This document shows, in pieces, positions 2,764 to 62,869 of a stretch of DNA of 64,000 bases (within the stretch, counting starts at the first letter, position 1; every line of letters starts with the position of its first letter). Source of the DNA: Dehalococcoidia bacterium (GTDB lineage Bacteria; Chloroflexota; Dehalococcoidia; GIF9; UBA5629); the NCBI GenBank assembly GCA_034435835.1, contig DAOTWF010000030.1, positions 69,069 through 133,068 of the forward strand, given 5' to 3'. Made by a program: the position numbers and the translations under genes. A model generated the notes under the pieces. That model had not been told where the DNA came from and searched no databases. It worked only from the letters and a program-made list of their open reading frames with translations.

Positions 2764-2810
2764 ACCCCCCTGAGGTACTATAGTGCCAGTATATCATCAG
2801 GCGTGCCATC

Positions 2811-2838
2811 AGTTTAGCACAAACAAACCATATGTCAA
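2811..2838 (-). promoter_or_regulatory. Candidate sigma70-type promoter for the HerA-like gene (TTGACA-N16-TAAACT)
   Basis: The minus strand reads TTGACAtatggtttgtttgtgcTAAACT about 50 nt upstream of the ATG at 2763. Motif match only. Confidence 0.35.
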
Positions 2839-2955
2839 TCATTTCCGTCAGAAGATACGTCGGGATGCACCGGAGACAAAGCTTCATACAGAAGTAAGGG
2901 CCCCTAGCAGAAAAGGGGCTAGTGGCTGTTCTCTACAGCCCGCGGAGATAGGCAT

Positions 2956-3206
2956 CTATGGAAGTTGCAGCCCGCCCACCCACATCCTGTCCTTGGTGGT
3001 CTTGCCGGTCACCTCGTCAGCCACCACGGGGTTATCGTCCCTTTCTGTGCCCCAGCCAGCGATAGTGAGCGGTATGCGCTCACCGACCTCATCCACGCGG
3101 ATGACTACAAACTGCTTTGCCTGGCTTTCTTTACTATGGCTGGAGCCTCGAATTCGAAATAGTTGATCACCGGGCAAAGTTTCTCTTTAGCCACTATTTT
3201 GTACAC
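2956..3206 (-). pseudogene. Frameshifted and truncated remnant of an NfnA/SudB-like (PyrK-type FAD/[2Fe-2S]) subunit gene
   Basis: From GTG (3204..3206, GAGG RBS upstream) frame A gives VYKIVAKEKLCPVINYFEFEAPAIVKKARQSSL*. A shifted frame continues AKQFVVIRVDEVGERIPLTIAGWGTERDDNPVVADEVTGKTTKD. Together these match the N-terminal ~70 aa of NfnA/sulfide dehydrogenase small subunit (consensus as recalled: FKIL.KE.LAP.I..FEIEAP.IAKKAKPGQFV.IR..E.GERIPLTIAD...G.I..V.QEVGKTT). The frameshift lies near 3110..3120. Homology ends after GKTTKD and a stop follows at 2956, so about 200 aa are missing. Confidence 0.55.
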
Positions 3207-3220
3207 GGTGAGACCTCGTT

Positions 3221-5410: not shown

Positions 5411-5414
5411 CGGA

Positions 5415-10607: not shown

Positions 10608-13325
10608 TCAATGTCTTCCCGTTTCCGTCACCCGTCTGATCACAATTTTGGCTATTTCAAGGATCGGAAAAATTGATGCCGCGGCTAGAATCACAATCAC
10701 CCAGTCAAACCAGGGTAAGGGAAAGGTGTTGAACGGCTCTTGAAGAAATGGTGTATAGACTATCACTGACAATAATAGAACCTCCCACAATATGGCAAGA
10801 TTCAGCCATTTGTTCCGAAAAAGACCGATTTTAAAAACAGAATGTATATCCGAGCGAAAATTATAGGCTTTGAAAAATTGTATAAGTACAAGGTTGACAA
10901 AACACATACTCTGCGCTTCTGTCATGCTCTTACCGGCGTCTAGAGCCCATTTGAATATCACCAAATTAGTTAGACAGGACCAGATGCCCCCGACAGCTAT
11001 AAGCACCACCACTGGTGTAGTAAAAATACCTTGCCCACGTGGCCTCGGTTTTCGTTGCATAATATCGGGGGCGGGTGGGTCAACAGATAGGGCAATGGCC
11101 GGCAGACCATCCGTGGCAAGATTGACCCAGAGGATCTGAATAGCAACGAGAGGAATCGCTCCGTAAGGTAGCCCGAACAAGGGCCCGAAAAGAATAGCAA
11201 CCGCCATCAGCAGTATTTCACCGATATTTGACGAAAGTAAGTACATGAGGTACTTCTTGATGTTATCGAATATTGCCCGCCCTTCCTCGACCGCCGCTAC
11301 TATGGAGACGAAGTTGTCATCGGTAAGCACCATGTCAGCCGCCTCCTTGGTAACGTCGGTGCCGGTAACACCCATGGCTACCCCGATATCCGCCTTCTTC
11401 AGCGCCGGAGCATCGTTCACCCCATCTCCGGTCATCGCCACCACATGCCCTTTCTTGGTCAATGCTTCTACCACCCTCAATTTGTGCACCGGCGATACCC
11501 GGGCGTAGATCTCCACACTCTCCACAAGCCTCTCGAACTCCTCGTCGCTTATCGCGTCCAGCTCCTCACCGTCCAGGGCAATCCCGTCTTTCAGCACCCC
11601 TAACTCCCTGGCAATGGCCACCGCAGTGAGCTTATGGTCGCCGGTTATCATCACCGACTTTATCCCCGCCTGCTCGCAGAGCCTCACCGCCTCCTTAGCC
11701 TCCTCCCGCGGCGGGTCTATCATACCTATCAGACCGAGAAATACCATACCTTGGTCAAGAGCCTGATGATTACCTTCAGATACCATCTTATAAGCCACCC
11801 CGAGCACGCGCAGAGCTCCTTCTGCCATCGTGCGGGCTGCCCTTAGTATCTTCTCCCGCTGCCCCGCGCTCAACTCCACTTCTTGCCCGTCATGAAAAAT
11901 ATGGTTACATGCCGCCAGCACCACCTCGGGCGCACCCTTGGAGTAGGCGACCAGACCACCATCGGGCAAGCGGTGGACGGTGGTCATCCGCTTGGTCTCC
12001 GAAGAGAATGGTGTCTCCCCAACGCGCGGTAACCTCCGGCACAACTCCTCTCTCATTAGCCCCGCCTTGGCCGCTGCCACTATGAGAGCGCCCTCGGTGG
12101 GGTCACCCCGCACCTGCCAGTTACCGTCAATACAAGCAAGCGAGGCATCATTGCACAGGGCTACAGCCTCCAGCAGCAACTTTAAGCCACGTTCCTGCTC
12201 GACATCGAGTGCCACTCCGTTTATGTAAAAGCCACCTTTGGGTTCATATCCGGAGCCAGCTACCTCCACGAACCTGCCATCGACGAAAATCCGCTTCACT
12301 GTCATCTGGTTCTGCGTCAGTGTGCCCGTCTTGTCCGAGCAGATAAATGTGGTGCAGCCCAACGTCTCCACCGCGGGCAGCTTCCGTATCAGGGCATGCC
12401 GCTTCACCATCCTCTGCACACCAAGAGCCAACGATATGGTGACCACCGCCGGCAGGGCTTCGGGTACAGCCGCCACTGCCAGGCTCACCCCCCAGATGAC
12501 CATCTCCAGTATCTCGTGGCCCCTCATCACCCCTATGCCAGCCAGGACACAACACAATACCAGGGCTGCAATACCAATATACTTCCCCAGTCTGTCCAGA
12601 TTTATCTGAAGCGGCGTGCGCTCCTTCTCCACCTCCCCGAGTAGTCTGGCAATCTTGCCGAACTCAGTTGCCATACCGGTGGCGGTCACCACCCCTTTCC
12701 CCCTGCCATAGACCACCACCGTGCCCGTAAATGCCATGTTCAACCGGTCACCCACTGACACCTTGCCTTCCACAGGGTCTACCATCTTCTCCACAGGCGT
12801 TGATTCTCCGGTCAGAGGTGCCTCATCCGTCTTTAAATTGACCGCCTCGACGAGCCTCATGTCAGCCGGTACCTTGTCTCCCGTGCCGAGCAGCACAATA
12901 TCGCCGGGTACCAGTTCACAGGCTGCAATTGTAATTTCCTCCCCGTCCCTGATGACCCTCGCCTGTGGCGCTGCCATCCTCTTCAAAGCTTCCATAGCAC
13001 GCTCAGCACGGTACTCCTGGTAGAACCCCAGGCCGGCAGCGAAAAGCACAATGACAAAAATAACAATAGCATCCGCCACCTCACCAAGGACGGCCGACAG
13101 TGCCACCGCGACCAGCAGGATGATGATGAGGAAGTTCTTGAACTGCTCTAGGAAAAGCTGCCAGGCTGAGACTCGCTTCTTCTCCACCAGCTCATTGAGA
13201 CCACATTCAGCAAGCCTCCGCTCCGCCTCTTCGCGGGATAGTCCCATCGTCGGGTCCGAACCGAGACGGCTCAGCACCTGGGGGACGGTAAGGTTATACC
13301 AGTTGGCTGTGCCGTTTACCACCAT
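10608..13325 (-). CDS. P2-type cation-transporting ATPase (Ca2+-ATPase-like, SERCA/PMCA class)
   Basis: 905 aa. It has an N-terminal Cation_ATPase_N-like region, the phosphorylation site ICSDKTGTLTQN, TGDHKLTA, the hinge MTGDGVNDAPALKKADIGVAMG, and about 10 hydrophobic segments. Confidence 0.85.
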   Translation of the reverse strand: MVVNGTANWYNLTVPQVLSRLGSDPTMGLSREEAERRLAECGLNELVEKKRVSAWQLFLEQFKNFLIIILLVAVALSAVLGEVADAIVIFVIVLFAAGLGFYQEYRAERAMEALKRMAAPQARVIRDGEEITIAACELVPGDIVLLGTGDKVPADMRLVEAVNLKTDEAPLTGESTPVEKMVDPVEGKVSVGDRLNMAFTGTVVVYGRGKGVVTATGMATEFGKIARLLGEVEKERTPLQINLDRLGKYIGIAALVLCCVLAGIGVMRGHEILEMVIWGVSLAVAAVPEALPAVVTISLALGVQRMVKRHALIRKLPAVETLGCTTFICSDKTGTLTQNQMTVKRIFVDGRFVEVAGSGYEPKGGFYINGVALDVEQERGLKLLLEAVALCNDASLACIDGNWQVRGDPTEGALIVAAAKAGLMREELCRRLPRVGETPFSSETKRMTTVHRLPDGGLVAYSKGAPEVVLAACNHIFHDGQEVELSAGQREKILRAARTMAEGALRVLGVAYKMVSEGNHQALDQGMVFLGLIGMIDPPREEAKEAVRLCEQAGIKSVMITGDHKLTAVAIARELGVLKDGIALDGEELDAISDEEFERLVESVEIYARVSPVHKLRVVEALTKKGHVVAMTGDGVNDAPALKKADIGVAMGVTGTDVTKEAADMVLTDDNFVSIVAAVEEGRAIFDNIKKYLMYLLSSNIGEILLMAVAILFGPLFGLPYGAIPLVAIQILWVNLATDGLPAIALSVDPPAPDIMQRKPRPRGQGIFTTPVVVLIAVGGIWSCLTNLVIFKWALDAGKSMTEAQSMCFVNLVLIQFFKAYNFRSDIHSVFKIGLFRNKWLNLAILWEVLLLSVIVYTPFLQEPFNTFPLPWFDWVIVILAAASIFPILEIAKIVIRRVTETGRH

Positions 13326-13331
13326 TCAGTC

Positions 13332-14363
13332 CTAGGCTACGGATGCTGGCCAGGGCTTCTCGCCTAAAGCGATGCGACATAGGTCGGTGATGAATATTTT
13401 GGGTAAGCTAAACTGCGAGCTGGGGCGACGCAACACCCGGTCACAGACCGGGCAACAGGTCACGATAGCTTCAGCACCAGAGGCGATGGCGTCCTCAAAG
13501 TTCTTCTTCTGCATCTCGATGGCGAGCTCCCTATTGGTATAGATGATGGGTGCACTGCAACACACCGCCTCCAGCCGCTCATACTTTCTCGGCAGCCTCT
13601 CAACACCCACCAGCTCAAATATCTCGTCCAGGAAGCTGTCATACTCGGGAATCCATCTGGTGGCGCAGTTTGCCTGGAAGGCTATCTTCCTGCCTATCCT
13701 CGTAATTCTGTCCCTGTGCTCCCTAAGATAACTACACAGGTACTCATAGAGGTGCATGTACTTGAAGGAGACTTTGAACCCGTACTCCTTGGCTTTCACA
13801 TGGGCAAGCACAAAACCTTCGTTGTGCATGTAGACCACTTCTTTGCCGAAGCTGGCAAGCCTGTCAAGGACGAGCCGACCATACCTTTCCACAAAGCTCT
13901 CACCGCCCATGTGCACACACCCGCAGAGGGACATAAATTCAGCACCCCTGACCACCGTCATACCCCTGAACAACTGGCTCTCCAGCGTACCCTCTGGAAA
14001 CTCATCAAACCGAAAGGAATCGAGTGACAACAGCGGCTTATCCGGCTCTCCGGGTATCACCTGCCTCGGCTCACCCCGCCCTTCAAGCCCCCTGGCTAGA
14101 GTTTCCAGCATCGGCCTGCCCACAGCCACTATCGGGGCGGTGCCCAGCTTCTCCTGCATCCTGAAGATGAGGTTGACCGGGTCAGCTCCCGTGGGACAAT
14201 AGCTGCTGCATGCCAGGCAGGTGATGCACCTGTGCAGAATCTCAGCATCCTTGCCCTCCATCAACAGCCTCAGCTCCACCACCGCCCTCTCCTTATCAAA
14301 GTCCACATACCGGCACTTCACCAGACAGTCCCCGCAAAGGTCGCATTTAGAAGCATCCCACAT
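13332..14363 (-). CDS. Fe-S oxidoreductase, 2x[4Fe-4S] ferredoxin-like N-terminus plus one CCG (HdrB/HdrD/GlpC-type) cysteine-rich domain
   Basis: 343 aa. Motifs are CDLCGDCLVKC and CITCLACSSYCP, then the CCG-type pattern C-x34-CC-x(33-34)-CxxC (NCATRW...AVCCSAP...TCCPVC). The stop lies 6 nt before the ATPase start. Confidence 0.7.
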   Translation of the reverse strand: MWDASKCDLCGDCLVKCRYVDFDKERAVVELRLLMEGKDAEILHRCITCLACSSYCPTGADPVNLIFRMQEKLGTAPIVAVGRPMLETLARGLEGRGEPRQVIPGEPDKPLLSLDSFRFDEFPEGTLESQLFRGMTVVRGAEFMSLCGCVHMGGESFVERYGRLVLDRLASFGKEVVYMHNEGFVLAHVKAKEYGFKVSFKYMHLYEYLCSYLREHRDRITRIGRKIAFQANCATRWIPEYDSFLDEIFELVGVERLPRKYERLEAVCCSAPIIYTNRELAIEMQKKNFEDAIASGAEAIVTCCPVCDRVLRRPSSQFSLPKIFITDLCRIALGEKPWPASVA

Positions 14364-14664
14364 TATCGTTCTCGCGTAAGTCCTTCACACGAAACGCAAT
14401 TATACGACCTGTCCCCCTTGCCGTCAAAACGCCGACACCGCAAACCAGTCTGCCCTGTACCAAAGTCTCCCTTTTTCTTTACCCCCCACTTTGACAGACA
14501 TCTTCCCACCGGCACCTGATAGTGCTATACTTCCTGCAGCCAGGACAAAGAAGGGGGATCGGGCTAACCAGACCAGCCGGAAGCTATACCCAAACCAAAA
14601 TCAGCGCATTTTAACACTTGCGCGGTGGACCGACGGTCAGACCGACTTCAGGGGGTGAGCAGAA

Positions 14665-15714
14665 ATGACCGGGCTTAAATTCGACAAAACGAAGTGCACA
14701 AACTGCAAAGGTGTCTTCTGTCTCACCAAATGCCAGTATATCCAACTGAGCCAAGATGCCGCCAGAAAAGAGTGGCAGAAAATAGTCGACGGCGAAGACT
14801 CATTTGTCCTGGAAGCCTGCACCACCTGCTATGCCTGTGAGGAATACTGTCCCTTTAACAACCACCCCTTCTATCTCATCGTCGAGCGACAGGAGCAAAA
14901 AGGCATACTGCCAGCGCCCAGGCCCATAATCACCATGTGGATCAACCAGTGCCAGCCCGTGGGCAGGTTTACCGTGGGGAGGGTCGGGGAAAGGATGCTG
15001 TCCTACTGCTTTCTTCCCCATTTCAATACGCTGGTGAAGGGCAAGCTCTTCGACGACACCGCCGGCGCTGTGGTCTTCGGCCAGGAATTTTTCTGCAACG
15101 CCGTCTACCTGCACTACGCCCGGACATCGGTGATAAAAGAAAGGCTGCCCCAGATAGTGGCAAACATCGGTAGGCTGGGCGTAAAGGAGCTCGTCTGCCT
15201 ACACGATGAATGCTACGGCACCTTCGCCTCCCTAGCACCAGCCTACGGCATCGAGGTACCGTTCAAGCCTGTCCACTATTTCGAGTACCTCTACAGCAGG
15301 CTGAAAGAGCTCGGCAAGGCGGTGAAAAAGCTAAATGTCAAAGCTGCCTACCAGCGCAACTGCTCCTCCCACCTCGCCCCGGAGACAGACAGACTCGTCG
15401 ATGATATTTTCAGCCTCATCGGGGTGGAAAGGGCTAAAAGGGAATACGACAGAGATAATGCACTGTGCTGCGCCGAAATCGTCCGCATGGGAAAGGGTCC
15501 TGCTCTCGCAGACGATATACAGAGAAAAAATATAGATGACATGGTGAAAGCCAGTTCTGAATATTGCGTGTTCAACTGCCCCGCTTGCTGGGATGCCCTG
15601 GCAGACAGAGTCGCCAGAAGGGGGATAAAGCCAATACATGTCATAGACCTCTGCAAGCTGGCGATAGGCGAATCCCAGTCTCTCAAGCTTCCCGAATTAG
15701 CAGTGGAGGTATAA
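14665..15714 (+). CDS. Fe-S oxidoreductase, paralogue of 13332..14363 (ferredoxin-like N-terminus plus one CCG domain)
   Basis: 349 aa with the same architecture: CTNCKGVFCLTKC (spacing altered), CTTCYACEEYCP, then NCSSHL...ALCCAEIV...FNCPACW. A GGGGGTGA RBS precedes the ATG. Confidence 0.7.
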   Translation: MTGLKFDKTKCTNCKGVFCLTKCQYIQLSQDAARKEWQKIVDGEDSFVLEACTTCYACEEYCPFNNHPFYLIVERQEQKGILPAPRPIITMWINQCQPVGRFTVGRVGERMLSYCFLPHFNTLVKGKLFDDTAGAVVFGQEFFCNAVYLHYARTSVIKERLPQIVANIGRLGVKELVCLHDECYGTFASLAPAYGIEVPFKPVHYFEYLYSRLKELGKAVKKLNVKAAYQRNCSSHLAPETDRLVDDIFSLIGVERAKREYDRDNALCCAEIVRMGKGPALADDIQRKNIDDMVKASSEYCVFNCPACWDALADRVARRGIKPIHVIDLCKLAIGESQSLKLPELAVEV

Positions 15715-15718
15715 TGCC

Positions 15719-17110
15719 TTGGTAACCACAAATGCTATCTACGAATCCCTGGTCAAAATCGTGGGCAAGAGCTATGTCTCTGCCAGCAAAGAAGAAAGGT
15801 ACTTCTATGCCCGGGACGGTGGCTTGATGCCGCCGCATGAGCCCGATTTCGTGGTGCTGCCTCGGACGACGGAAGAGGTGCAGGAGATAGTCAGGCTGGC
15901 AAACAGAGAAAAGATACCGATAGTCCCCGCCGGCGCCGGGCTGGCGCTCACCGGCCTGGTGATACCACAGAAGGGCGGCATCGTGGTGGACATGAAGCGG
16001 ATGGACAAGATTATAGAGGTAAACGAGAAAGCCAGGTATGTAATCGTGGAGGGGGGCACCACCCAGGGGACACTGAAAAGCTATTTGCAGAAGCACTACC
16101 CCCACCTGAGGCACAGTATACCGGATGCGCCCCCATCAGCCACAGTGGTCGCCAATGCGGTAATACACGGGCAGGGGCGTCTGGCACACCAGCACGGCTT
16201 CAACTCCGACATGGTCTCCGGGCTGGAGGTGGTGCTGCCCACCGGAGAAGTCTGTCGCATCGGTTCCTGTTCTGTATCACCATATTGGTTCTCAAAAGGA
16301 CCGCCTTTGCCTGACCTCAGCGGGCTCTTTCTCGGCTGGTTCGGTACAACAGGCATCATTACCAAGCTCGGCTTGAAGCTCTATCCTTGCAAGAAGCTGA
16401 GAGACGTGATGGTGCTGCTCACAGATAAAGTTGAGCTTGTGCCAGACATCATGCTCAGGCTCAGCCACACTGAGATGGTGGAGGATGTGGTCGTCTCAGC
16501 CCAGCCCCTGCCCCTCAGGTTCAAAGGCACCTTCTGGATCATGACCTACATCACTGGCGATTCGGACGAAGAGCTTGAGTTCAAGCGCAAGATGGTCTGG
16601 GACTCAGTCTGGGACTATTTCCAGAGCCGCGATGTCGGCTTCATCAGCACCTCGCCGGAGGGAAAGGCACCACTCCTATCCATGCCTTCCAAGGACACCA
16701 CCAGGTTCGCCGATGTGGCTAAGGGCGGCGGCTTCCAGTACGCCGGACCGATAACCCCCATCGAAAAGTTCCCCGCCTTCATCCGTAAGCTCGAGGAGGT
16801 GGCTGCCAAATACAATGTATTCTATGGCTCCACCACCCGCCTCATCGGCTCGGGGCACTGTATGATGTTCAGCTTTTCTTTCTCCTTCAACCGTGCAAAT
16901 CCGGACGAGATGGCAAGGGCTAAGAAGGCCCTGGACGAATGCAGCAGGTTCGCCCTCGAGGAAGGGGCTGTTCTCTGGAAACCGGACGTGGATGAGCAGC
17001 GGATGATAATGGAAAGGATGGACCCGAACACGCTCGAACTGATGAAAAGGATAAAACAGCTCCTCGACCCCAACGGCATTATGAACCCGGGCAACTGGGA
17101 GATGAGATGA
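15719..17110 (+). CDS. FAD-linked oxidase (GlcD / D-2-hydroxyacid dehydrogenase, PCMH-type FAD-binding family)
   Basis: 463 aa with a TTG start. The N-terminus is typical of the family (VVLPRTTEEVQEIVRLANREKIPIVPAGAGLALTG). The C-terminal tail (LLDPNGIMNPGN) is characteristic of GlcD-like proteins. Confidence 0.8.
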   Translation: MVTTNAIYESLVKIVGKSYVSASKEERYFYARDGGLMPPHEPDFVVLPRTTEEVQEIVRLANREKIPIVPAGAGLALTGLVIPQKGGIVVDMKRMDKIIEVNEKARYVIVEGGTTQGTLKSYLQKHYPHLRHSIPDAPPSATVVANAVIHGQGRLAHQHGFNSDMVSGLEVVLPTGEVCRIGSCSVSPYWFSKGPPLPDLSGLFLGWFGTTGIITKLGLKLYPCKKLRDVMVLLTDKVELVPDIMLRLSHTEMVEDVVVSAQPLPLRFKGTFWIMTYITGDSDEELEFKRKMVWDSVWDYFQSRDVGFISTSPEGKAPLLSMPSKDTTRFADVAKGGGFQYAGPITPIEKFPAFIRKLEEVAAKYNVFYGSTTRLIGSGHCMMFSFSFSFNRANPDEMARAKKALDECSRFALEEGAVLWKPDVDEQRMIMERMDPNTLELMKRIKQLLDPNGIMNPGNWEMR

Positions 17111-18267
17111 TGCAGCAGAAATATGTCAGCCAGATACACAGATGCTTCCGCTGCGGTTACTGCAAGTTCCCCACCGACTACTCCTCGTTCAACTGCCCCC
17201 CATACTGTAAGTTCAGGTTCGAGACCTATTCCACCGGCGGCCGTCTGTGGCTGATCTACGCCTGGCTGAAGGGCGAGATCGAGTGGTCGGAGCACCTTGC
17301 AGAAATACTATACACCTGCACCACTTGCAGAAACTGTGCCGAGCAGTGCCCCATGAAGTTCGCCCCCGATATCATCGACTGGATAATCGGAGCCAGGAGT
17401 GACATGGTGGAGAAGGGCAGGATCCCACCGAGGGTGGCACGCTTTTTTGAAGCCGTGCAGGGGTACGGCAACCCGTTCAAGCTGCTAAGGGGCGATAGAG
17501 CTAGCTGGACTAACGGGACGAAGTCATATTCCCCCGGCGACGAATTTCTGTTGTACATCGGATGTCTGGGCTCATACGACGAAAACGGACAGAAGATGGC
17601 AAAAAGCCTGGCTAGCGTACTTGAGGCGTCGGGGGTGTCCTTTGGTATCTTGGGCAACGACGAGGAGTGCTGCGGCAACGAGGTCTACATGCTCGGCGAG
17701 ATGGGGCTCTTCCAGAACATTGCCGCGAGGAACATCCAGAAATTCAAGGAGCTCGGCGTAAGGAAGATAGTCACACTTTGCCCCCACGGCTACAATGCCT
17801 TGAAGAACAATTACCCCAAACTGGGTGGGGAGTTCGAGGTATATCACTATACCGAATTGCTGGCAGAACTGATCAGACAGAAAAAGCTGAAGCTTCGCCA
17901 AATCAGGACAAAAATCACCTATCAGGATCCCTGCTTTCTGGGCCGCTACAACAACATCTACGATGAGCCGCGCCTGGTGCTGCAGAGCATCCCCGGTGTC
18001 GAGCTGGTGGAGATGGAACGCAGTAGAAAGGATGCCTTCTGCTGCGGCGGTGGCAGCGGCAACTTCGTCATGGACCTGCTAGCAGGCGATGAAAACAGCC
18101 CGGCACGGGTCAGGGGAAAGGAGGCTTATGCCACTGGCGCCGAGGTGCTTGCAGTCGCCTGCCCAGGCTGCATGACCATGCTTAACGACGCGGTGAAGGC
18201 AGAAAACCTGGAAATAAAGCTGACCGTCAAGGATGTTTCACAGCTCTTGGCGGAATCGCTATCTTGA
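17107..18267 (+). CDS. GlcF/HdrD-like Fe-S subunit with two CCG domains
   Basis: 386 aa. An ATGA overlap joins it to the FAD oxidase. Motifs: CFRCGYCKF...CPP, CTTCRNCAEQCP, two CCG boxes (EECCGNE, FCCGGGSG) and ACPGCMTM. Confidence 0.75.
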   Translation: MMQQKYVSQIHRCFRCGYCKFPTDYSSFNCPPYCKFRFETYSTGGRLWLIYAWLKGEIEWSEHLAEILYTCTTCRNCAEQCPMKFAPDIIDWIIGARSDMVEKGRIPPRVARFFEAVQGYGNPFKLLRGDRASWTNGTKSYSPGDEFLLYIGCLGSYDENGQKMAKSLASVLEASGVSFGILGNDEECCGNEVYMLGEMGLFQNIAARNIQKFKELGVRKIVTLCPHGYNALKNNYPKLGGEFEVYHYTELLAELIRQKKLKLRQIRTKITYQDPCFLGRYNNIYDEPRLVLQSIPGVELVEMERSRKDAFCCGGGSGNFVMDLLAGDENSPARVRGKEAYATGAEVLAVACPGCMTMLNDAVKAENLEIKLTVKDVSQLLAESLS

Positions 18268-18300
18268 AATCTTCTGATTTGAGCCTTAAGGAGGACAGCG

Positions 18301-20688
18301 ATGACAACCAGGCAAGCCGTCACGGTTGATTCGCCGCTGGGAAAGGCGGAGCCGGACAGCACGGGGGCACCTGTCACAGTAGTATGCCTTGACCCGCTGC
18401 AAGCCTACGTAGGGGTTCCCGATCTGCTCAAAAAGGTTATCGATGAGTCAAGCGCCGAAGCCTGGCAGAAGATAAGGGAAAGGATAGACTACATCTACAA
18501 TAACCTGGCTTTGGCTCTAAGCCTTCTGGACAGGGTGACCAACTTCAGCCGGACGGTGAAATCGGAGGTCGCGACTGGCAAGAAGCTACTTTTCAAACCA
18601 AACCTGGTGGCGCCTACAAGCCTCGACCCTATAACACACGGTGAGGGACCAGGCGACAGCGCCTGCACCAACTGGACGTTTATCGCAGCCCTGATGCGCT
18701 GGTTCCATGACGTCCTGGAAATCGATTACTTTAACATGATGCTCGGCGAAGCTGCCAGCGCCGCTGCCATGAACGCAGGCTACTACACCCACGCCTTCGG
18801 CAAAGGCAGGAGGATCACCACTGAAGCTGTAATAGAGGGGCGCAGCGGCGACTTCTACGGCGGCTGGGGCTTCTACTTCGTGAGGAAGTACCTCGCCGAG
18901 AGCCATCCGTCATCCCATGAGGATGACCCCCTGAACGGCTACGAAGAAAGCGTCGCCGGCAAATACCTACCTCCTGGCAGAGCGGGTAACTGCTTGATGG
19001 TCTATGACCTCAACCGTACCCACGACATAAAAGGCAAAGCTCGGACTGTGCCGGTACCCAATGGCGCCAACTTTAAAGAAATAACCCTGCACAAAATCAT
19101 CGTGGGCGGCAACCCCTCCGACCCCGCAGACCTTAAAAACTATCCCGGCTGTGTCCTCATCAACGCACCACGCCTTAAAATCCACGCTATAGACCTGATA
19201 ACCAACGCCATCAAAAACCTGGGCATAGGCCTGTACCCACAGGAAGCCGCCAAGGACGGGATGGGTGGCACTAAATGGAAGTACGCCTACCCCTACAAGC
19301 CGGGACCAGGGATGAAGACCGAACTGCCCCATCAGGTCTGGGTGCCCAAACTGGACGAGAGCACCGGATTACCGCTGAAAGACAAGGGCGGTAAATATAT
19401 CGTCACCAGAACAGCCGGTATGTCCGGCACGCAGGCAGATATCGTCACGACAGTAAAGAGCCAGGGTATCTTCATGCTCCATGTCGTTGATGCCATTCAG
19501 GCGGTGAACATAGACCACCAGGGCATTGGCTTGGGAGCCAAAGTAAACGAGGGGCTTATCCTGGCATCCCTCGACCCGGTAGCCCTGGACCTGTGTTGTG
19601 CCCGCTACATGTTCAAGACCATCCCCATGGCTGAGGCAAGAAAAATTGCCCGCAAGAACGACCTTGCCACCGACTTCCTGCAACGCGTGCCCATAGCCAG
19701 GGTCGAGGGTCAGGACATCGTCATCGAACAGGGCTTCGATTCCCCTCTGCTGCGCTATAACCTGTATAAATACGCCGAAGCCAGAGGGCTGGGCTCACAA
19801 AAATACCACGTTATCGGCTGGGACACCACCGCACAAATACCCGTGTCATCGCTCTGGGGACATCTCGGGCAGGTGGCAGGTGGGGAATTCCGCGAGCTGA
19901 TGACCGGCGAGTTCTACTACAGTCCCGGAAAGCTGCTCTGGGACTGCCAGCGTACCGTGCTCAGTTATCTGGAAGCCAACGACAGGCTCACCGGTTCAAC
20001 CTATTACCGGGAGGTGATGTCCGAATTTGACGAGGATAAAGACGGGGTTATCGGCTATGATGAGAAAGGTCGGAACGGGCTATGGCAGACGATCCTGCGG
20101 CTGGCTTCCCGCGGCATGCAGGTAACCGGAGCGGAAAAATACGGCTTCCTGCACGGCTCCTTCCTTATCACCGCACTGCGCCTCAAATACCTCAACGCCC
20201 AATGGAACCCCGACGGCTATGATTTCGGTAAGTCATACCCCGTACTGCAGGCGGTAGCCATTGGCCTCACCATGTCGCGCACACCTGTGGAGGGCAAAGA
20301 CCCCCTCTTCCCCTCGATGACTTGGGGAAAGGGCAAGCTCCCCAGCCTCCAGTTTGCCAGCTATATGTCAACGGCAACCGCAATATATGGCCGCGGCTTT
20401 CCCACCAAGGTCAGCCTGCCCTCGCTCTACGGCTTAGCTTTCCAGTATGCTGATAAGACCCTCAATGGAGCCAGCTACACCGGCAGCCCGGGACCAGCAA
20501 GCGACCGCCGCGCCGTCGACCGGTATATCGAGGCAGTATCCCGGGGGACAAGTCCTCTGGACTTCGTCCTCTACGTCCCACCTGGCTTCGGCAACCTTGG
20601 AGGAAAGCCCGCCCCTAACGTGGAGGAGACAACAGATCCCCACAAAATCTTCACCGTCACCTTCAACAAAGGCAGGGAACGCTGGTAA
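18301..20688 (+). CDS. DUF362-domain protein with a ~350-aa C-terminal region of unknown affiliation
   Basis: 795 aa. DUF362-like signatures as I recall them: KKLLFKPNLVAP, INAPRLKIHAIDLITNAIKNLGIG and VVDAIQAVN...GLILASLDPVALDLCCARYMF, spanning about aa 90-445. I could assign no motif to aa ~450-795. No Cys cluster is evident. Confidence 0.55.
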   Translation: MTTRQAVTVDSPLGKAEPDSTGAPVTVVCLDPLQAYVGVPDLLKKVIDESSAEAWQKIRERIDYIYNNLALALSLLDRVTNFSRTVKSEVATGKKLLFKPNLVAPTSLDPITHGEGPGDSACTNWTFIAALMRWFHDVLEIDYFNMMLGEAASAAAMNAGYYTHAFGKGRRITTEAVIEGRSGDFYGGWGFYFVRKYLAESHPSSHEDDPLNGYEESVAGKYLPPGRAGNCLMVYDLNRTHDIKGKARTVPVPNGANFKEITLHKIIVGGNPSDPADLKNYPGCVLINAPRLKIHAIDLITNAIKNLGIGLYPQEAAKDGMGGTKWKYAYPYKPGPGMKTELPHQVWVPKLDESTGLPLKDKGGKYIVTRTAGMSGTQADIVTTVKSQGIFMLHVVDAIQAVNIDHQGIGLGAKVNEGLILASLDPVALDLCCARYMFKTIPMAEARKIARKNDLATDFLQRVPIARVEGQDIVIEQGFDSPLLRYNLYKYAEARGLGSQKYHVIGWDTTAQIPVSSLWGHLGQVAGGEFRELMTGEFYYSPGKLLWDCQRTVLSYLEANDRLTGSTYYREVMSEFDEDKDGVIGYDEKGRNGLWQTILRLASRGMQVTGAEKYGFLHGSFLITALRLKYLNAQWNPDGYDFGKSYPVLQAVAIGLTMSRTPVEGKDPLFPSMTWGKGKLPSLQFASYMSTATAIYGRGFPTKVSLPSLYGLAFQYADKTLNGASYTGSPGPASDRRAVDRYIEAVSRGTSPLDFVLYVPPGFGNLGGKPAPNVEETTDPHKIFTVTFNKGRERW

Positions 20689-20729
20689 AAGCAAAGCCAG
20701 CATAACGACTGATAGATAAGGAGGCAAAA

Positions 20730-21494
20730 ATGGCAAAAGATGTCGTGCTCTATGAGGTAAAGGATAAAATCGCCTGCATTACACTGAACAACCCGGATAA
20801 CCGCAATAGGCTCGACCCGAATATGTGCCTCGCCCTAGGCGAGGCATGGGATCAGTTCGCCAAGGACGATGACGCCTGGGTGGCGCTGCTCAGCGCCAAC
20901 GGTAAGGACTTCTGCCGTGGCGCCGATCTCAAGCATGAAGGGCTTCTGAAATACCTGCGCCGTGCCTTCCCGCCAAACGGGACCAGGATACTGAAACCGA
21001 TCGTCGGCGCCGTCCACGGCATGGTCGCCGGCAGCGGCTTCGGTCTGGCAACGTACGGCACCGACATCACCTACGCTACCAAAGACACCCAGTTCGTCTT
21101 CGCTGAGGTCTGGGTGGGGATCGTGGGAGGTATAGTGGAGTATGTACCCTACATGCCCTTCAAAATCTCTCTAGAGTTCCTGCTGTCCGGACAGCCGATG
21201 AGCGGCGAGCGGGCTTACGAGGTTGGGCTGGTCAACCACGTTTGCAAGGACAAAGACGAAATGATGACTGAAGCCACCAAAATGGCTAAAATAATCAGCG
21301 AAAACGCGCCGCTCACCATCCGCGCTATCAAATATGGGCAGTACAAGCACAGGGTGGAGGCGCAGAGAAAAGCAATGCGCGCCGCCCGTAAGGAATTCGA
21401 GGTTTTCATAAAGCCACAGCTTGAGAGCGAGGACTTCAAGGAGGGCAGGGCTGCTCTGTTCGAAAATAGAAAACCGGTGTTCAAGGGCAAATAA
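20730..21494 (+). CDS. Enoyl-CoA hydratase/isomerase (crotonase) family protein
   Basis: 254 aa. IACITLNNPDNRNRLD...ALLSANGKDFCRGADLK is the crotonase-fold N-terminal signature. An AAGGAGG RBS is present. Confidence 0.8.
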   Translation: MAKDVVLYEVKDKIACITLNNPDNRNRLDPNMCLALGEAWDQFAKDDDAWVALLSANGKDFCRGADLKHEGLLKYLRRAFPPNGTRILKPIVGAVHGMVAGSGFGLATYGTDITYATKDTQFVFAEVWVGIVGGIVEYVPYMPFKISLEFLLSGQPMSGERAYEVGLVNHVCKDKDEMMTEATKMAKIISENAPLTIRAIKYGQYKHRVEAQRKAMRAARKEFEVFIKPQLESEDFKEGRAALFENRKPVFKGK

Positions 21495-21569
21495 GCCGCT
21501 TAGAATACAGCCAGTATTGACGTCGGCACACCGTGACCAGAGCCGGACTCCAAGTGATGGTGGGGTAAA

Positions 21570-22769
21570 ATGCCACAGGAAAGAACATTACAGGGAATAA
21601 GAGTCCTGGACTTCTCCCGTTACATCGCCGGACCATACTGCTGCATGCTCCTCGCCGATATGGGGGCTGAGGTTATCAGGGTAGAACCGCCCGGAGGTGC
21701 CGAGGACAGGAATCTGGGCCCCTTCAGTCCCGATGGGCAGGCACTGGTCTACGGCTTCATCCTCCAGCGCAACAAGAAGAACATCACCCTGAACTTACGA
21801 AAAGCCGAGGCTGGAGAACTGCTGCAAGGGCTCGTATCAAAGTCGGATGTGCTGGTGCACAATTTCCCGCCGGGCACCGAGGAGGCAAAGATCCTAGACT
21901 ACAGTTCTCTAAGACAGCTAAACCCGGCGCTCATCGAGGCGATAATCACCGGCTTCGGTCAGTATGGACCTTATGCCGAAAGGACCTGTTTCGATTCCAT
22001 CGCCCAGGCGATGTCCGGCGCCATGAGCTACACCGGCTTCCCCGGCAGCCCGCCCACCAGAGCAGGTGTGCAGTACGTTGATTTTTCCACCGGGCTGTCA
22101 GCAGCGCTGGGAATTGCCCTGGCTCTCCTGCACCGACAGAAGACCGGCAAGGGGCAACTGGTGGATGTTTCCCTGTTCGACGTCGCCCTGTCCTTTGTCG
22201 CCGCCGCCGGGGTGGCGGCGGAATACAAACTTCTGGGGGAAATCCGCCCCCGGGTGGGCAACAGCTCCTTCTACGCCTACGCCAATAGCTTCCAGGCAAA
22301 GGACGGCTGGGTGATGATCAACGTGGTGGGCAACAGCGCCTGGCGCCGTTTCTGCCGGGCGCTGGGGAGGGATGACCTTGCCAGCGACCCCAGATTCAAG
22401 GACAACCTCTCCCGCTATCTCAACCGCGAGGAAATCAACTCCATCGTCGCCGGCTGGACAAGAGAGAAAACGGTCGAAGAGGTAACCCGCATCCTCGAAG
22501 CCGCCAGGGTACCCTGCGGACCGATAAGGAACATGGCTGATATCTACCAGGACCCCCAGGTCACCGCCAGGGAGATGCTGGTGGAAATCGAGCAACCGGG
22601 CGCGGGCACAGTCCCGATGCCCGGCATCGCCATAAAGCTTTCCGGGACACCCGGCGGCATAGACTCCCCAGCAGCAAGCCTCGGCGAACACAACCTCGAA
22701 ATCTACTGTCACCTCCTTGGCTTAAGCGACCAGCAACTAGCCGATTACAGGGACAGAGGAGTTATCTAA
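21570..22769 (+). CDS. Family III CoA-transferase (CaiB/BaiF/Frc family)
   Basis: 399 aa. LQGIRVLDFSRYIAGPYCCMLLADMGAEVIRVEPPGG is the family N-terminal signature. VDVSLFD and WRRFCRALGR are also typical. Confidence 0.85.
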   Translation: MPQERTLQGIRVLDFSRYIAGPYCCMLLADMGAEVIRVEPPGGAEDRNLGPFSPDGQALVYGFILQRNKKNITLNLRKAEAGELLQGLVSKSDVLVHNFPPGTEEAKILDYSSLRQLNPALIEAIITGFGQYGPYAERTCFDSIAQAMSGAMSYTGFPGSPPTRAGVQYVDFSTGLSAALGIALALLHRQKTGKGQLVDVSLFDVALSFVAAAGVAAEYKLLGEIRPRVGNSSFYAYANSFQAKDGWVMINVVGNSAWRRFCRALGRDDLASDPRFKDNLSRYLNREEINSIVAGWTREKTVEEVTRILEAARVPCGPIRNMADIYQDPQVTAREMLVEIEQPGAGTVPMPGIAIKLSGTPGGIDSPAASLGEHNLEIYCHLLGLSDQQLADYRDRGVI

Positions 22770-22841
22770 CCCCCACCACGAAGACTGCCCTGAAAACAAA
22801 GGTACCACCAAAGTACCACAGGCATTCAGTCCGACCAGTAC

Positions 22842-22870
22842 TTGACAGCGCAATGATGTGCGCATATGAT
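22842..22870 (+). promoter_or_regulatory. Candidate sigma70-type promoter upstream of the sensor kinase (TTGACA-N17-TATGAT)
   Basis: TTGACAgcgcaatgatgtgcgcaTATGAT lies about 75 nt upstream of the GTG at 22945. Motif match only. Confidence 0.45.
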
Positions 22871-22944
22871 ATGTACGACGAACATTCTTAGCTACGCAAG
22901 CCCGGACTGACAGGGTATAGCAAGGTGGGATGGGAAAGTAAGGG

Positions 22945-24753
22945 GTGAAGAGTAAAACTGGTGTTGCGGGGATACTTCTGGCGGCAAGTCTTCTTCTGCT
23001 CTGTCTGCCATCTCTACACGTTTTCACCTCGACCACAGTTGTATCCGCGGACAGCTCGCTGACAGTGAGGGTCGGCATCTACGAAAACAAGCCCAAGATA
23101 TTCACCGATGAACAGGGTGTCCCCTCCGGCTTCTGGGTGGACATCGTGGAGTATATTGCCTCCCAAGAAGGCTGGAAGATACAGTACGTGCACGGCACCT
23201 GGCAGCAGTGTCTGGAAAGGCTGGAGAACGGTGAGATAGACGTAATGCCAGACGTCGCCTACACTCAGGAAAGAGCCCAAAAATACGAATTTTCCCGTGA
23301 GCCCGTCTACACAAGCTGGTCAACCGTCTACACCCGTCCCGGCTTACGCATAGAGTCCATCCTCGACCTGCAGGGGAAAAATGTGGCCGTCATGAAGGGC
23401 AGCGTTAACTACGAAGGTCCCGAGGGGATAAAGCAACTGGCGAAGTCCTATGGCATCGACTGCACCTTCACCGAAGTTGACAGCTACCAGAAGGTGTTCG
23501 AGCTGGTGGCAAACGGGGATGTCGATGCGGGCGTGGTGAGCAAGGACTTCGGGCACCAGCATGAGACAGAGTACCGTCTGGCAAAGACCGCCATCATCTT
23601 CCAGCCCTCCCTCCTCCACTTCGCTTTTCCCAAAGGTTCCAGCCTCACACCCCACCTCATCGAGAGGATAGACAACCATATGACGGCGCTCAAAAACGAT
23701 GGTAAGTCCTTCTATTACCAGTCGCTAGAAAGGTGGTTTGGGGTGAAGCCGTCCAGCAGAGCGGTTGTCCCCATGTGGCTTATCTGGGGGCTGGTAGCCG
23801 CGGGGGGGGTAGCCTTGCTGCTGGCTGCCGGCAACTTTATTCTCAGGGCACAGGTCGCTGCCAGAACCAGGGAACTGATCGAGGAAATCAGGGAGCGCCG
23901 GCTGGCTGAGGAAAAGCTGGTAAGGTACCGCCAGCACCTGGAAAAACTGGTCGAGACGAGGACCGCCGAGCTTACACAAAAGAACCTGGCACTCGAACAG
24001 GCAAACATCCGTCTTCAGGAAATCGACCGCCTAAAATCGGTGTTCCTCGCCAGCATGAGCCATGAGCTCCGCACCCCACTGAACTCTATAATCGGCTTCA
24101 CCGGCATACTTCTCCAGGGCATGGCTGGGGGGATTAACGATGAACAGCGCAAACAGCTCACCATAATTAAAAGCAGCGCCAGCCACCTGCTGAATTTGAT
24201 TAACGACATCCTCGACATCTCCAAGATAGAGGCGGGCAGGGTTGAGCTGTTCCCCGAGGAAATTAAGCTGGACGACATGGTAAAGGACATAGCCCATACC
24301 TTCTCCCCGATGGTAGACCAGAAAGGATTGCAACTGGTCACAGAAATACCGGAGGGCATATCGCTCGTCACGGATAAACGGCGTCTGAAACAGGCACTGA
24401 TAAACCTGGTGAGCAACGCCGTGAAGTTCACCGAGAGGGGGACGATCAGGCTCTCAGCCACGGTCATCGATGGGGCAAAACTTGAGCTCCGCGTCAGCGA
24501 TACCGGGCCAGGGATAAAGGAGGAGGACATGGCTAAGCTTTTCGAGCCCTTTCAGCAAATCAGTGCCTCGCTGACCAAAAGGCATGATGGGACAGGCCTG
24601 GGACTGTACCTGACCAAGAAACTGGCGAGCCTCCTCGGCGGCGATATCACCGCAAAAAGTCAGTACGGTCAGGGTAGTGAGTTCACCCTTACAATTCCGC
24701 TGCGGTGCACACCAGCAAAGGAGACAAAAAACGAAACGCATACTGGTAGTTGA
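22945..24753 (+). CDS. Sensor histidine kinase with an extracytoplasmic family-3 solute-binding-protein (SBP_bac_3-like) sensor domain
   Basis: 602 aa. It has a signal/TM segment (AGILLAASLLLLCL), a ~230-aa periplasmic-binding-like domain (VGIYENKPKIF...GKNVAVMKGS...), a second TM (VVPMWLIWGLVAAGGVALLLAAG), a coiled coil, the HisKA box SHELRTPLNSIIGF, and HATPase boxes (NLVSNAVKFT, DTGPGI, GTGLGLYL). Confidence 0.85.
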   Translation: MKSKTGVAGILLAASLLLLCLPSLHVFTSTTVVSADSSLTVRVGIYENKPKIFTDEQGVPSGFWVDIVEYIASQEGWKIQYVHGTWQQCLERLENGEIDVMPDVAYTQERAQKYEFSREPVYTSWSTVYTRPGLRIESILDLQGKNVAVMKGSVNYEGPEGIKQLAKSYGIDCTFTEVDSYQKVFELVANGDVDAGVVSKDFGHQHETEYRLAKTAIIFQPSLLHFAFPKGSSLTPHLIERIDNHMTALKNDGKSFYYQSLERWFGVKPSSRAVVPMWLIWGLVAAGGVALLLAAGNFILRAQVAARTRELIEEIRERRLAEEKLVRYRQHLEKLVETRTAELTQKNLALEQANIRLQEIDRLKSVFLASMSHELRTPLNSIIGFTGILLQGMAGGINDEQRKQLTIIKSSASHLLNLINDILDISKIEAGRVELFPEEIKLDDMVKDIAHTFSPMVDQKGLQLVTEIPEGISLVTDKRRLKQALINLVSNAVKFTERGTIRLSATVIDGAKLELRVSDTGPGIKEEDMAKLFEPFQQISASLTKRHDGTGLGLYLTKKLASLLGGDITAKSQYGQGSEFTLTIPLRCTPAKETKNETHTGS

Positions 24754-25096
24754 GGACAACGAAGACAACCTCTACCTCACCAGATTCATACTGGAGAAAA
24801 ACGGCTATCAGGTGATAGAGGCAAAGAATGGTATCCACGGCGTCGAGCTGGCAATAAGTGAGAAGCCAGACCTCATCCTCATGGACATCCAGTTGCCCGA
24901 TATCAACGGCTTAGAGGCGGTGAGGAGAATAAGGGCGCTGGAAATAGACCGTGAGACACCCATAGTGGCACTCACCTCCTACGCCATGCCCGGTGACAGG
25001 GAGAAAGCACTGGCAGCCGGCTGTACTGGCTACATCGAAAAGCCTATAAACCCGGACACCTTTATGGCGGAGATAGAGAAGTTTTTGACACCATGA
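24677..25096 (+). CDS. CheY-like receiver (REC) domain protein. The start is uncertain and it may be the C-terminal REC of the preceding kinase.
   Basis: REC homology begins at KRILVVEDNEDN (~24734), followed by LILMDIQLPDINGLE and GCTGYIEKPI. The only in-frame start is a GTG at 24677, which overlaps the kinase by 77 nt and lacks a properly spaced RBS. An A6 run at 24726..24731 lies at the frame junction. Confidence 0.6.
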   Translation: MSSPLQFRCGAHQQRRQKTKRILVVEDNEDNLYLTRFILEKNGYQVIEAKNGIHGVELAISEKPDLILMDIQLPDINGLEAVRRIRALEIDRETPIVALTSYAMPGDREKALAAGCTGYIEKPINPDTFMAEIEKFLTP

Positions 25097-25118
25097 CCAT
25101 GCCCGGTGGAGGAACAAA

Positions 25119-62170: not shown

Positions 62171-62867
62171 GATACAGAACCTCAATGTATTTCACGGACT
62201 CATCCCTGTCCTGCATGATGTAAGCCTCGAGGTCAAAAAGGGTGAAATGGTGGCCTTGCTCGGTTCCAACGGCGCTGGCAAGACCACACTGTTGAACACT
62301 GTCTCAGGAATCCATAAAGCTTCATCGGGTAGCATCATATTCGAGGGGGAACATATCGAGAACAAACCTCCCCACGAGATAGTCAAGCGCGGTATTATCC
62401 AAGTTCCGGAGGGAAGAAAAATACTTCCCTACCTGACTGTGGAAGAAAACCTTTATCTCGGTGCCTACACCAACGAGGCTTGGCGTAAAAGGAAACAGTC
62501 TATTGAAAGAATATATGAACTGTTCCCAGTGCTTAAAGAAAGGCGGAGGGTGCTTGCCGGCAGCCTGAGTGGTGGCGAACAGCAGATGCTGGTCATTGGC
62601 AGGGGACTTATGGCACGACCTAAGTTGATGATGTTCGATGAACCCTCACTCGGTCTAGCCCCTAAGCTCCTCTCCGAAGTCTACAGGACACTGGCAAAGC
62701 TCCGCGATGAAAAGATAACCATACTGCTCTCAGAACAGAACGTGCGCCAGGCATTAGCTATCACCCACCGTGGATACGTGCTCGAAAACGGCAGGCTAAT
62801 GCTCAGCGGCGACAGCAAAGAACTGCTGAACAACGAGATGGTTAAAAGGGCCTATTTAGGAGTGTGA
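62163..62867 (+). CDS. livF: HAAT-family ABC transporter ATP-binding protein, LivF-like
   Basis: 234 aa. Walker A is GSNGAGKTT, the signature is LSGGEQQML, Walker B is [11 protein letters not shown], and the C-terminus is VKRAYLG. Confidence 0.88.
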
Positions 62868-62869
62868 TT

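Follow-up and report, generated by a model that had tools for sequence, protein, structure and literature searches.

The window analyzed here, a 64,000-nt stretch of DNA from a Dehalococcoidia bacterium whose genome assembly measures 1.44 Mb and is 88% complete, contains at positions 13332-22769 a cluster of seven genes that combine redox and CoA-ester functions (Table 1). Six of them are co-oriented on the plus strand: a flavoenzyme trio, consisting of an Fe-S protein (CCGb), an FAD subunit and an HdrD/GlcF-like Fe-S subunit (hereafter HdrD-like), is followed by a giant DUF362 protein, an atypical crotonase and a family III (CaiB-type) CoA-transferase. The seventh gene, encoding the Fe-S protein CCGa, is divergent. 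The cluster is a composite of three modules, namely the flavoenzyme trio, the giant DUF362 protein with the crotonase, and the family III CoA-transferase. An earlier note, drawn up from the letters of the window, had listed the same seven genes, and their coordinates and domains are reproduced exactly by the open reading frame (ORF) list and by Pfam. Its view of the locus as a co-oriented redox/CoA-ester cluster of an anaerobe held up, the cluster being conserved within the genus, and so did its statement that the genes map to no characterized pathway: none of the seven proteins reaches an NCBIfam equivalog cut-off.

Table 1. Genes, putative promoters and predicted metal-binding loop of the cluster, in window coordinates.
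Feature	Positions	Strand	Size	Description and basis
CCGa	13332-14363	-	343 aa	Fe-S protein, divergent (ORF list, Pfam)
Promoter-like site for CCGa	14399-14427	-		TTGACG-17-TATAAT, 11/12 matches (scan)
Promoter-like site for the six-gene run	14503-14531	+		TTCCCA-17-TATACT with upstream TG (scan)
CCGb	14665-15714	+	349 aa	Fe-S protein, first gene of the flavoenzyme trio
FAD subunit	15719-17110	+	463 aa	FAD_binding_4 and FAD-oxidase_C (Pfam)
HdrD/GlcF-like Fe-S subunit	17107-18267	+	386 aa	Fer4_8 and two CCG domains (Pfam)
Giant DUF362 protein	18301-20688	+	795 aa	Partial DUF362 match (Pfam)
EF-hand calcium-binding loop	20029-20064	+		DEDKDGVIGYDE, residues 577-588 of the giant DUF362 protein (predicted from sequence)
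Atypical crotonase	20730-21494	+	254 aa	ECH_1 (Pfam)
Family III CoA-transferase	21570-22769	+	399 aa	CoA_transf_3 (Pfam)
Promoter-like site before the sensor kinase	22842-22870	+		Separate site, TTGACA-17-TATGAT, 11/12 matches (scan)
Sensor histidine kinase	22945-24753	+		SBP_bac_3, HisKA and HATPase (Pfam); next gene after the cluster

The compact plus-strand run and the divergent CCG paralogue that the earlier note had described are both confirmed: the gaps between the genes of 14665-22769 measure 4, -4, 33, 41 and 75 nt, the HdrD-like gene starting 4 nt inside the end of the FAD gene, and the two CCG proteins share 32% identity. Across four lineages the divergent intergenic region of 300 nt can be aligned, and its conserved blocks coincide with the two promoter-like sites. 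Both hexamers of the CCGa site fall on conserved columns of this alignment, and the block GTGCTATACT at the plus-strand site (TGnTATACT) is kept in 4/4 lineages aligned. No convincing terminator was found inside 14665-22769, and an Rfam search of 13000-25500 returned no riboswitch or leader. Because the gaps are tight or overlapping, no convincing internal terminator is seen and the plus-strand promoter-like site is conserved in the four lineages, the six genes would form one operon. This is part of the explanation that we favor, with a probability of about one half for the whole: a resident flavoenzyme module joined to an acquired acyl-CoA module, serving the anoxic catabolism of a carboxylic acid via CoA thioesters. 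To note, interlocked palindromes lie upstream of the operon (14600-14646), in a stretch of ~46 nt that is missing from three related intergenic regions. One of them (14628-14646) was considered as a conserved operator and rejected, since it sits in a stretch private to this genome.

Conservation and composite origin of the cluster

The relatives compared comprised 21 genomes, five of them in the genus of the window and 16 others. Orthologues of the cluster occur, in unchanged order, in the four other genus genomes and on metagenome contigs, at 72-95% protein identity, so the gene arrangement is not due to chance. The full order, P-type ATPase, CCGa, divergent CCGb, FAD subunit, HdrD-like subunit, DUF362, crotonase, CaiB and kinase, is kept in three genus genomes. 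The giant DUF362 protein, the crotonase (orthologues 88-92% identical) and the CoA-transferase (81-87%) are each present in 5/5 genus genomes and in 0/16 of the other relatives. The FAD protein and its trio are found in 10/21 relatives, five of which are genomes of other genera without the giant DUF362 protein. The earlier note had proposed to check its cluster by the neighborhood of DUF362, crotonase and CaiB. This neighborhood is conserved within the genus, whereas outside it only a DUF362-crotonase pairing recurs, with non-orthologous crotonases.

The trio behaves as a unit of its own. In other genera and on unrelated contigs its order is always CCGb, FAD subunit, HdrD-like subunit, with 65-78% identity to the window proteins, and in such stand-alone trios the CCGb orthologues (66-74% identical) always precede the FAD gene. 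What the note had pictured as a GlcD/GlcF pair with extra electron carriers is in fact this conserved three-gene unit. Its stand-alone neighbors encode AMP-dependent ligases, a thiolase, MaoC hydratases, short-chain dehydrogenases/reductases (SDR), an old yellow enzyme (OYE)-type reductase, acyl-CoA dehydrogenases (ACADs) and DUF169 proteins. The FAD family is very abundant, with 2775 proteins at E<=1e-20, the best 120 of which are all at least 71% identical; homologues of the trio are found in Chloroflexota and Desulfobacterota. CCGa is 31-35% identical to all CCGb orthologues and is therefore an old paralogue; its divergent position is kept in four lineages. As the modules are separately conserved, the trio more widely and DUF362, crotonase and CaiB in the genus only, sequence comparison indicates that the genus ancestor gained a DUF362-crotonase(-CaiB) cassette next to its resident trio.

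The same data feed the main rival explanation, which we consider possible although clearly less probable than a joint pathway: a general-purpose resident trio and a horizontally acquired DUF362-crotonase-CoA-transferase cassette would share a promoter and nothing else. The trio stands alone in five related genomes and on many other contigs, with varied neighbors; the giant DUF362 protein is patchily distributed (3/401 genomes of the host phylum) and its tree departs from taxonomy; and the level of conservation differs module by module. Such a juxtaposition fits poorly with the persistence of the trio-DUF362-crotonase order, with gaps of 33-100 nt, down to 72% DUF362 identity despite rearranged flanks. 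Moreover, a sister cluster has an ACAD at the equivalent place, and in the unrelated lineage L008 a fused FAD-CCG protein is likewise encoded close to a giant DUF362 protein. The three further readings weighed below, a 2-hydroxyacid dehydrogenase scheme, a nickel-pincer epimerase and a relative of the ‘Magic’ benzene cluster, are each less likely than juxtaposition.

The sensor histidine kinase immediately downstream, with its solute-binding domain, had been put forward as the possible regulator. It is indeed adjacent to the cluster in three genus genomes (G000, the host, G411 and G413). Such a role is possible, yet little favored, because the kinase has its own strong promoter-like site and is not adjacent in the G364/L022 sub-lineage, where other genes follow the crotonase. 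The insert between crotonase and CaiB spans 574-9059 of L070 (~8.5 kb) and 8452-17548 of L022, and that of L022, a metagenome contig, is polysaccharide-related and includes genes for a GH10 xylanase-like protein, a UDP-sugar dehydrogenase, an epimerase and a glycosyltransferase.

The flavoenzyme trio and the CoA-ester enzymes

CCGa and CCGb each carry, according to Pfam, a CCG domain and a 4Fe-4S dicluster domain. CCGa has two CxxCxxCxxxC motifs besides its single complete CCG domain (C233, C268/C269, C304, C307), and CCGb, likewise with one complete CCG domain, has two 4Fe-4S motifs. The HdrD-like subunit displays the full HdrD/GlcF cysteine pattern, two CxxCxxCxxxC motifs followed by two CCG domains (Pfam CCG, 106.7 bits in two stretches), and its best NCBIfam models, TfrB and LdhH, both stay below cut-off. 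The FAD subunit has the two-domain architecture of FAD_binding_4 followed by FAD-oxidase_C (109.2 and 49 bits), but its score against the glcD model TIGR00387 is 124.5 vs a cut-off of 567.9, and against NF008408 68.1 vs 897.

The earlier note had assigned FAD and HdrD-like subunits to a GlcD/GlcF-like dehydrogenase of 2-hydroxyacid type. On this reading, an enzyme for lactate, glycolate or 2-hydroxyglutarate-like acids would feed or drain a CoA-ester pathway. The domain composition with a two-CCG partner speaks for this scheme, as do the best PDB hit of the FAD subunit, mitochondrial D-lactate dehydrogenase (D-LDH), and a transferase that resembles enzymes acting on dicarboxylates or hydroxy-dicarboxylates. 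However, p-cresol methylhydroxylase and eugenol oxidase match equally well in the PDB, and the matches mostly cover the FAD domain only. The catalytic residues also speak against the scheme. In human D-2-hydroxyglutarate dehydrogenase (D-2-HGDH), His434, His441, Glu475 and His476 bind the metal and the substrate carboxyl and hydroxyl groups and are essential; the same His-His-Glu-His positions are strictly conserved in D-LDHs and GlcD (PMC7801405). In an alignment with E. coli GlcD, HAGDGNMH is replaced by GSGHCMMF and SGEHGIG by L-WKPDV (GEHGIG vs WKPDVD) in the FAD subunit of the window, the C-terminal domain of which contains no EH dipeptide. Because it lacks the HxGDGNxH and GEHG residues, the subunit does not qualify as a canonical 2-hydroxyacid dehydrogenase and is best regarded, from its sequence, as a remote member of the VAO/PCMH (vanillyl-alcohol oxidase/p-cresol methylhydroxylase) superfamily. 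The 2-hydroxyacid scheme is therefore unlikely.

The resemblance to GlcDEF, D-LDH and D-2-HGDH is one of layout: a VAO/PCMH-type FAD subunit lies beside a GlcF/HdrD-like protein, in which two CCG domains accompany two 4Fe-4S motifs. Unlike GlcDEF, the cluster has no GlcE; a second Fe-S/CCG protein, CCGb, stands in its place, and a third, CCGa, is on the opposite strand. The His-His-Glu-His set for metal binding and catalysis is absent from the FAD subunit, and identity falls to 22% with GlcD and, for the HdrD-like subunit, 27% with GlcF. The fused FAD_binding_4-CCG protein of L008 (4536-7127, minus strand, 863 aa) lies 2.9 kb from the giant DUF362 gene, inside an acetoin-dehydrogenase-like cluster, and is also without the GlcD catalytic motifs.

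The crotonase matches ECH_1 with 103.2 bits over 11-253, which places it in the crotonase fold. Its FCRGADL segment aligns with the oxyanion-hole motif FxAGxDL of PaaF and CaiD. The first catalytic Glu (E109 in PaaF) is replaced by Gly (AGSGFGLAT vs GAGCELAL), so the two-Glu signature of hydratases is absent. The second is retained (FAEV, E126, in the column of PaaF E129) and is followed by a three-residue deletion. Aligned with E. coli PaaF, PaaG and CaiD, the genus orthologues all share the Gly, E126 and the deletion. A lone Glu at the second position is what enoyl-CoA isomerases, rather than hydratases, typically have. The earlier note had left hydration and isomerization side by side; because one catalytic Glu is missing, plain hydration is disfavored and the sequence favors isomerase-like or atypical chemistry.

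The CoA-transferase matches CoA_transf_3 over its full length (402.9 bits, profile positions 1-366), and its D171 aligns with the catalytic Asp169 of E. coli CaiB. Among NCBIfam models, the succinate-glutarate (291.9 vs a cut-off of 750) and succinyl-CoA:mesaconate (284.1 vs 700) CoA-transferases score best, without reaching equivalog level, and the best PDB hit is succinate-hydroxymethylglutarate CoA-transferase (9e-67). As the best scores go to dicarboxylate-type enzymes, there is a hint that the substrate may be dicarboxylic. The genome encodes at least six further family III CoA-transferase paralogues, 29-33% identical and several of them in tandem (window 62864-64000; C30:132007-134603, 166909-169340).

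A family III CoA-transferase with a crotonase is also found in the E. coli cai system. CaiD is the closest of the references tried to the window crotonase (32%), and the catalytic Asp of CaiB is kept. The likeness does not extend further: the transferase shares only 26% identity with CaiB, dicarboxylate transferases giving it higher scores; of the two catalytic Glu of CaiD, the first (PaaF E109) is missing from the crotonase; and equivalents of caiA, caiC and caiT are absent.

The giant DUF362 family

The earlier note had described the 795-aa DUF362 protein as being without known function, which still stands: it matches no NCBIfam model at all and nothing in the PDB by sequence or fold. Its Pfam match (45.2 bits vs a cut-off of 24) covers only profile positions 101-200. 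Compared by hhalign with 12 ordinary DUF362 proteins, residues 245-480 match at 90% probability, and the motifs PxLKxH...TxAxKNxG and SxDPVAxD are common to the giant and ordinary proteins. The protein is made up of a DUF362 core with insertions, a β-rich domain and a C-terminal helical domain. Its AlphaFold2 model is of good quality (pLDDT 84.9, pTM 0.86), and Foldseek against the PDB returned a best E-value of 0.17 and nothing at E<=0.001. A PDB search with the single sequence gave no match, and a profile search gave only EF-hand loops and one spurious repeat protein.

Conservation is nevertheless extensive. A set of 32 diverse homologues shares, without exception, 79 residues of polar or aromatic type (H, D, E, K, R, N, Y, W, S, T, Q), eight of them His. 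No cysteine is invariant in this set, which makes a conserved Fe-S site unlikely. The segment DEDKDGVIGYDE fits the EF-hand loop pattern D-x-[DN]-x-D-G-x-I-x-x-x-E: across the 32 homologues positions 1, 6 and 12 never vary, D or N fills position 3, D is found at position 5 in 31/32, and position 8 holds I or L. At this stretch, the profile search of the PDB matched EF-hand proteins only. From its conservation pattern, the giant DUF362 protein is probably a metalloenzyme.

Full-length homologues, with 52-88% identity, are present in Methanosarcina, Methanospirillum, Bathyarchaeota, Promethearchaeota, Dehalococcoidia, Desulfobacterota, Syntrophaceae and Rokubacteria; identity to the window protein exceeds 50% in the archaeal ones. 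The family is compact, as phmmer against 1.84 billion cluster representatives returned only 313 hits; in three phyla, 3/401, 22/401 and 10/401 genomes carry it. Literature searches on DUF362 and COG2006 returned nothing on the giant family, and one on acetoacetate decarboxylase (ADC), Methanosarcina and acetone nothing relevant. Several loci show peculiarities. Giant DUF362 genes with in-frame TAG codons occur in the methanogen phylum (one TAG, G1031:C34:5123-7489) and in a Desulfobacterota-type genome (two, G654:C105:13185-14939), which could reflect pyrrolysine read-through or decay. Locus L050, also Desulfobacterota-type, carries tandem giant DUF362 genes (2543-4942 and 5038-7473) behind a family-5 solute-binding protein gene. 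In L017, from Promethearchaeota, genes for a MoxR-type AAA ATPase and for two VWA/CoxE-like proteins flank the giant DUF362 gene (5763-7870, 11147-12571); MoxR-type AAA ATPase/VWA pairs often mature metalloenzymes.

The neighbor census covered 50 loci of the family. An ADC-like gene is the most frequent partner (14/50, with two ADC subfamilies in bacteria). In all nine methanogen loci (L071-L079), the giant DUF362 gene has an ADC-like gene diverging from it and an SDR gene downstream; their ADC and SDR are 47-63% and 49-57% identical, respectively, to the pair of Desulfobaccales. Next come crotonases (7/50, six directly downstream of DUF362) and family-5 solute-binding ABC importers (6/50; an α/β-hydrolase is also present in four). 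ACADs and AMP-ligases are found in 4/50 loci each, and OYE-type reductases, aldehyde:ferredoxin oxidoreductases (AOR), nitroreductases, Amidohydro_2 proteins and, in bacterial and other loci, SDRs in 3/50 each. In the DUF362 tree, the loci with a crotonase belong to two clades that are far apart, and the window crotonase is only 21-23% identical to the others; the DUF362-crotonase pairing therefore arose more than once. In a sister clade, the DUF362 protein of which is 70% identical, the gene order is ACAD, Fer4-nitroreductase, AMP-ligase, thiolase, AMP-ligase, DUF362, crotonase: as compared to the window, an ACAD takes the place of the flavoenzyme trio, and ligases that of the CoA-transferase.

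By analogy, these neighbors point to chemistry on β-functionalized acyl compounds. The gene beside DUF362 very often belongs to families that contain decarboxylases or lyases (ADC-like, crotonase, α/β-hydrolase, Amidohydro_2), and for this reason the giant DUF362 protein may produce or consume a β-oxo acid or thioester. The proteins of the window and of the ADC-like/SDR loci of methanogens and Desulfobaccales belong to the same ~800-aa family, are 52-55% identical over their full length and share the EF-hand loop. The partners differ: there, a Schiff-base ADC-like enzyme and an SDR that would act on free acids; here, a crotonase, a CoA-transferase and a flavoenzyme, which would imply thioester substrates.

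The giant DUF362 protein has also been weighed as a LarA-like nickel-pincer nucleotide (NPN) enzyme that would racemize or epimerize a hydroxyacyl(-CoA) delivered by the crotonase, an idea that we regard as quite improbable. DUF362 and the N-terminal domain of LarA do belong to one Pfam clan, CL0471 (PMC11770544), LarC is encoded in 10/12 other carrier genomes, and the DUF362 neighbors are enzymes of hydroxy and oxo acids. Yet LarC is common in anaerobes anyway (6/14 control genomes) and LarC (PF01969) is absent from the host genome G000, 88% complete, from the 98%-complete congener G364 and from a third carrier. Because larC is lacking in the host and in this congener, an NPN/LarA cofactor was rejected as a candidate for the genus, where it appears unlikely. 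Foldseek against the PDB gave no LarA match, although a distant similarity could be masked by the large insertions of the core, and the giant protein is twice the size of LarA, with unrelated extra domains.

A candidate route for anoxic acid catabolism

Under the favored explanation, the CoA-transferase would first activate the acid with succinyl-CoA or a similar donor, the likeliest substrate being a C4-C6 dicarboxylic or hydroxy-dicarboxylic acid. The CCGb-FAD-HdrD-like trio would then dehydrogenate the CoA ester or its side chain, in an ACAD-like role, and pass the electrons to an acceptor over as many as five or six Fe-S clusters, CCGa being a possible further carrier. The trio is cast as a dehydrogenase because the sister clade has an ACAD and a ferredoxin-domain protein at this place, and because stand-alone trios adjoin acyl-CoA ligases and β-oxidation genes. 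In a third step, the single-Glu crotonase may shift a double bond, or hydrate or decarboxylate an enoyl or β-oxo thioester. Finally, the giant DUF362 protein would convert a β-functionalized (3-hydroxy, 3-oxo or 2-enoyl) acyl intermediate, probably by the same kind of reaction that its homologues would perform on free acids beside the ADC-like and SDR proteins of methanogens.

Several points weigh against this route. The trio and the DUF362-crotonase-CaiB set exist independently elsewhere, so adjacency may not mean one pathway. In the G364/L022 sub-lineage, unrelated genes totaling ~8.5 kb lie between crotonase and CaiB. The route as written is incomplete, the cluster containing no thiolase, 3-hydroxyacyl-CoA dehydrogenase or lyase. 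Last, conservation is the single line of evidence for the metal dependence of the giant DUF362 protein.

In anaerobic benzene degraders (ORM2, BzS1, Pelotomaculum BPL), the ‘Magic’ cluster encodes a GlcDEF-like heterotrimer of two FAD subunits and one Hdr-like subunit, the function of which is unproven (PMC13101534, PMC13416013). In design it would be the closest published analogue of the trio, the two being likened by published descriptions and not by sequence: both associate, in strict anaerobes, a GlcDEF-like flavoprotein/Hdr-like complex with one or more type III CoA-transferases and enoyl-CoA hydratase-type genes. The composition differs. In ‘Magic’, two FAD subunits lie on either side of one Hdr-like subunit, and two type III CoA-transferases are accompanied by an AMP-ligase and MaoC hydratases, without DUF362; the cluster described here has a single FAD subunit and a single CoA-transferase, with three Fe-S/CCG proteins and a crotonase. 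That the window cluster is itself a relative of ‘Magic’, its flavoenzyme activating or transforming an aromatic or cyclic compound and its CoA enzymes processing the adduct, is the least probable of the readings: the published gene set, with its AMP-ligase and enoyl-CoA hydratases, the equal distance of the ‘Magic’ flavoprotein from GlcDEF (<=23% identity; PMC13101534) and the AMP-ligases and MaoC genes beside stand-alone trios are outweighed by the subunit ratio (one FAD with two or three Fe-S proteins here vs two FAD with one Fe-S there), the lack of AMP-ligase and MaoC genes in the window cluster, and the much wider distribution of the trio as compared to benzene degraders.

As a whole, the cluster combines genes in a new way within a known type of system, the anaerobic acyl-CoA catabolic operon, and two widespread enzyme systems in it lack assigned reactions. 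A bolder proposal can be made only tentatively. The giant DUF362/EF-hand protein would found a new class of metalloenzymes, independent of NAD and ATP and acting on β-functionalized acyl compounds, here wired to a new Fe-S-rich flavoenzyme akin in design to ‘Magic’ within an undescribed anaerobic organic-acid route. For example, the DUF362 protein could make a β-oxo acid or thioester that a decarboxylase-capable partner, ADC-like, crotonase, α/β-hydrolase or Amidohydro_2 depending on the lineage, then removes.

The chief value of the cluster is as an entry point to the trio and giant DUF362 families. Both are widespread in microbes of anoxic sediment and subsurface, and their position here beside known chemistry (CoA transfer, crotonase) narrows the substrate search; the operon also gives the DUF362 family a second, thioester-based context next to the ADC/SDR context of methanogens. 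Some of the methanogens carrying a giant DUF362 protein are amenable to genetics. For anaerobic benzene activation, the long-sought system has recently been proposed to consist of GlcDEF-like flavoenzymes encoded with type III CoA-transferases, a question for which a simpler and far commoner relative could be of help.

On the minus strand, a gene for a Ca-type P-type ATPase follows CCGa after 6 nt (window 10608-14363), a pairing found in at least three genus genomes (L004, L068, L069). The CCGa redox protein and this cation pump are probably co-transcribed.

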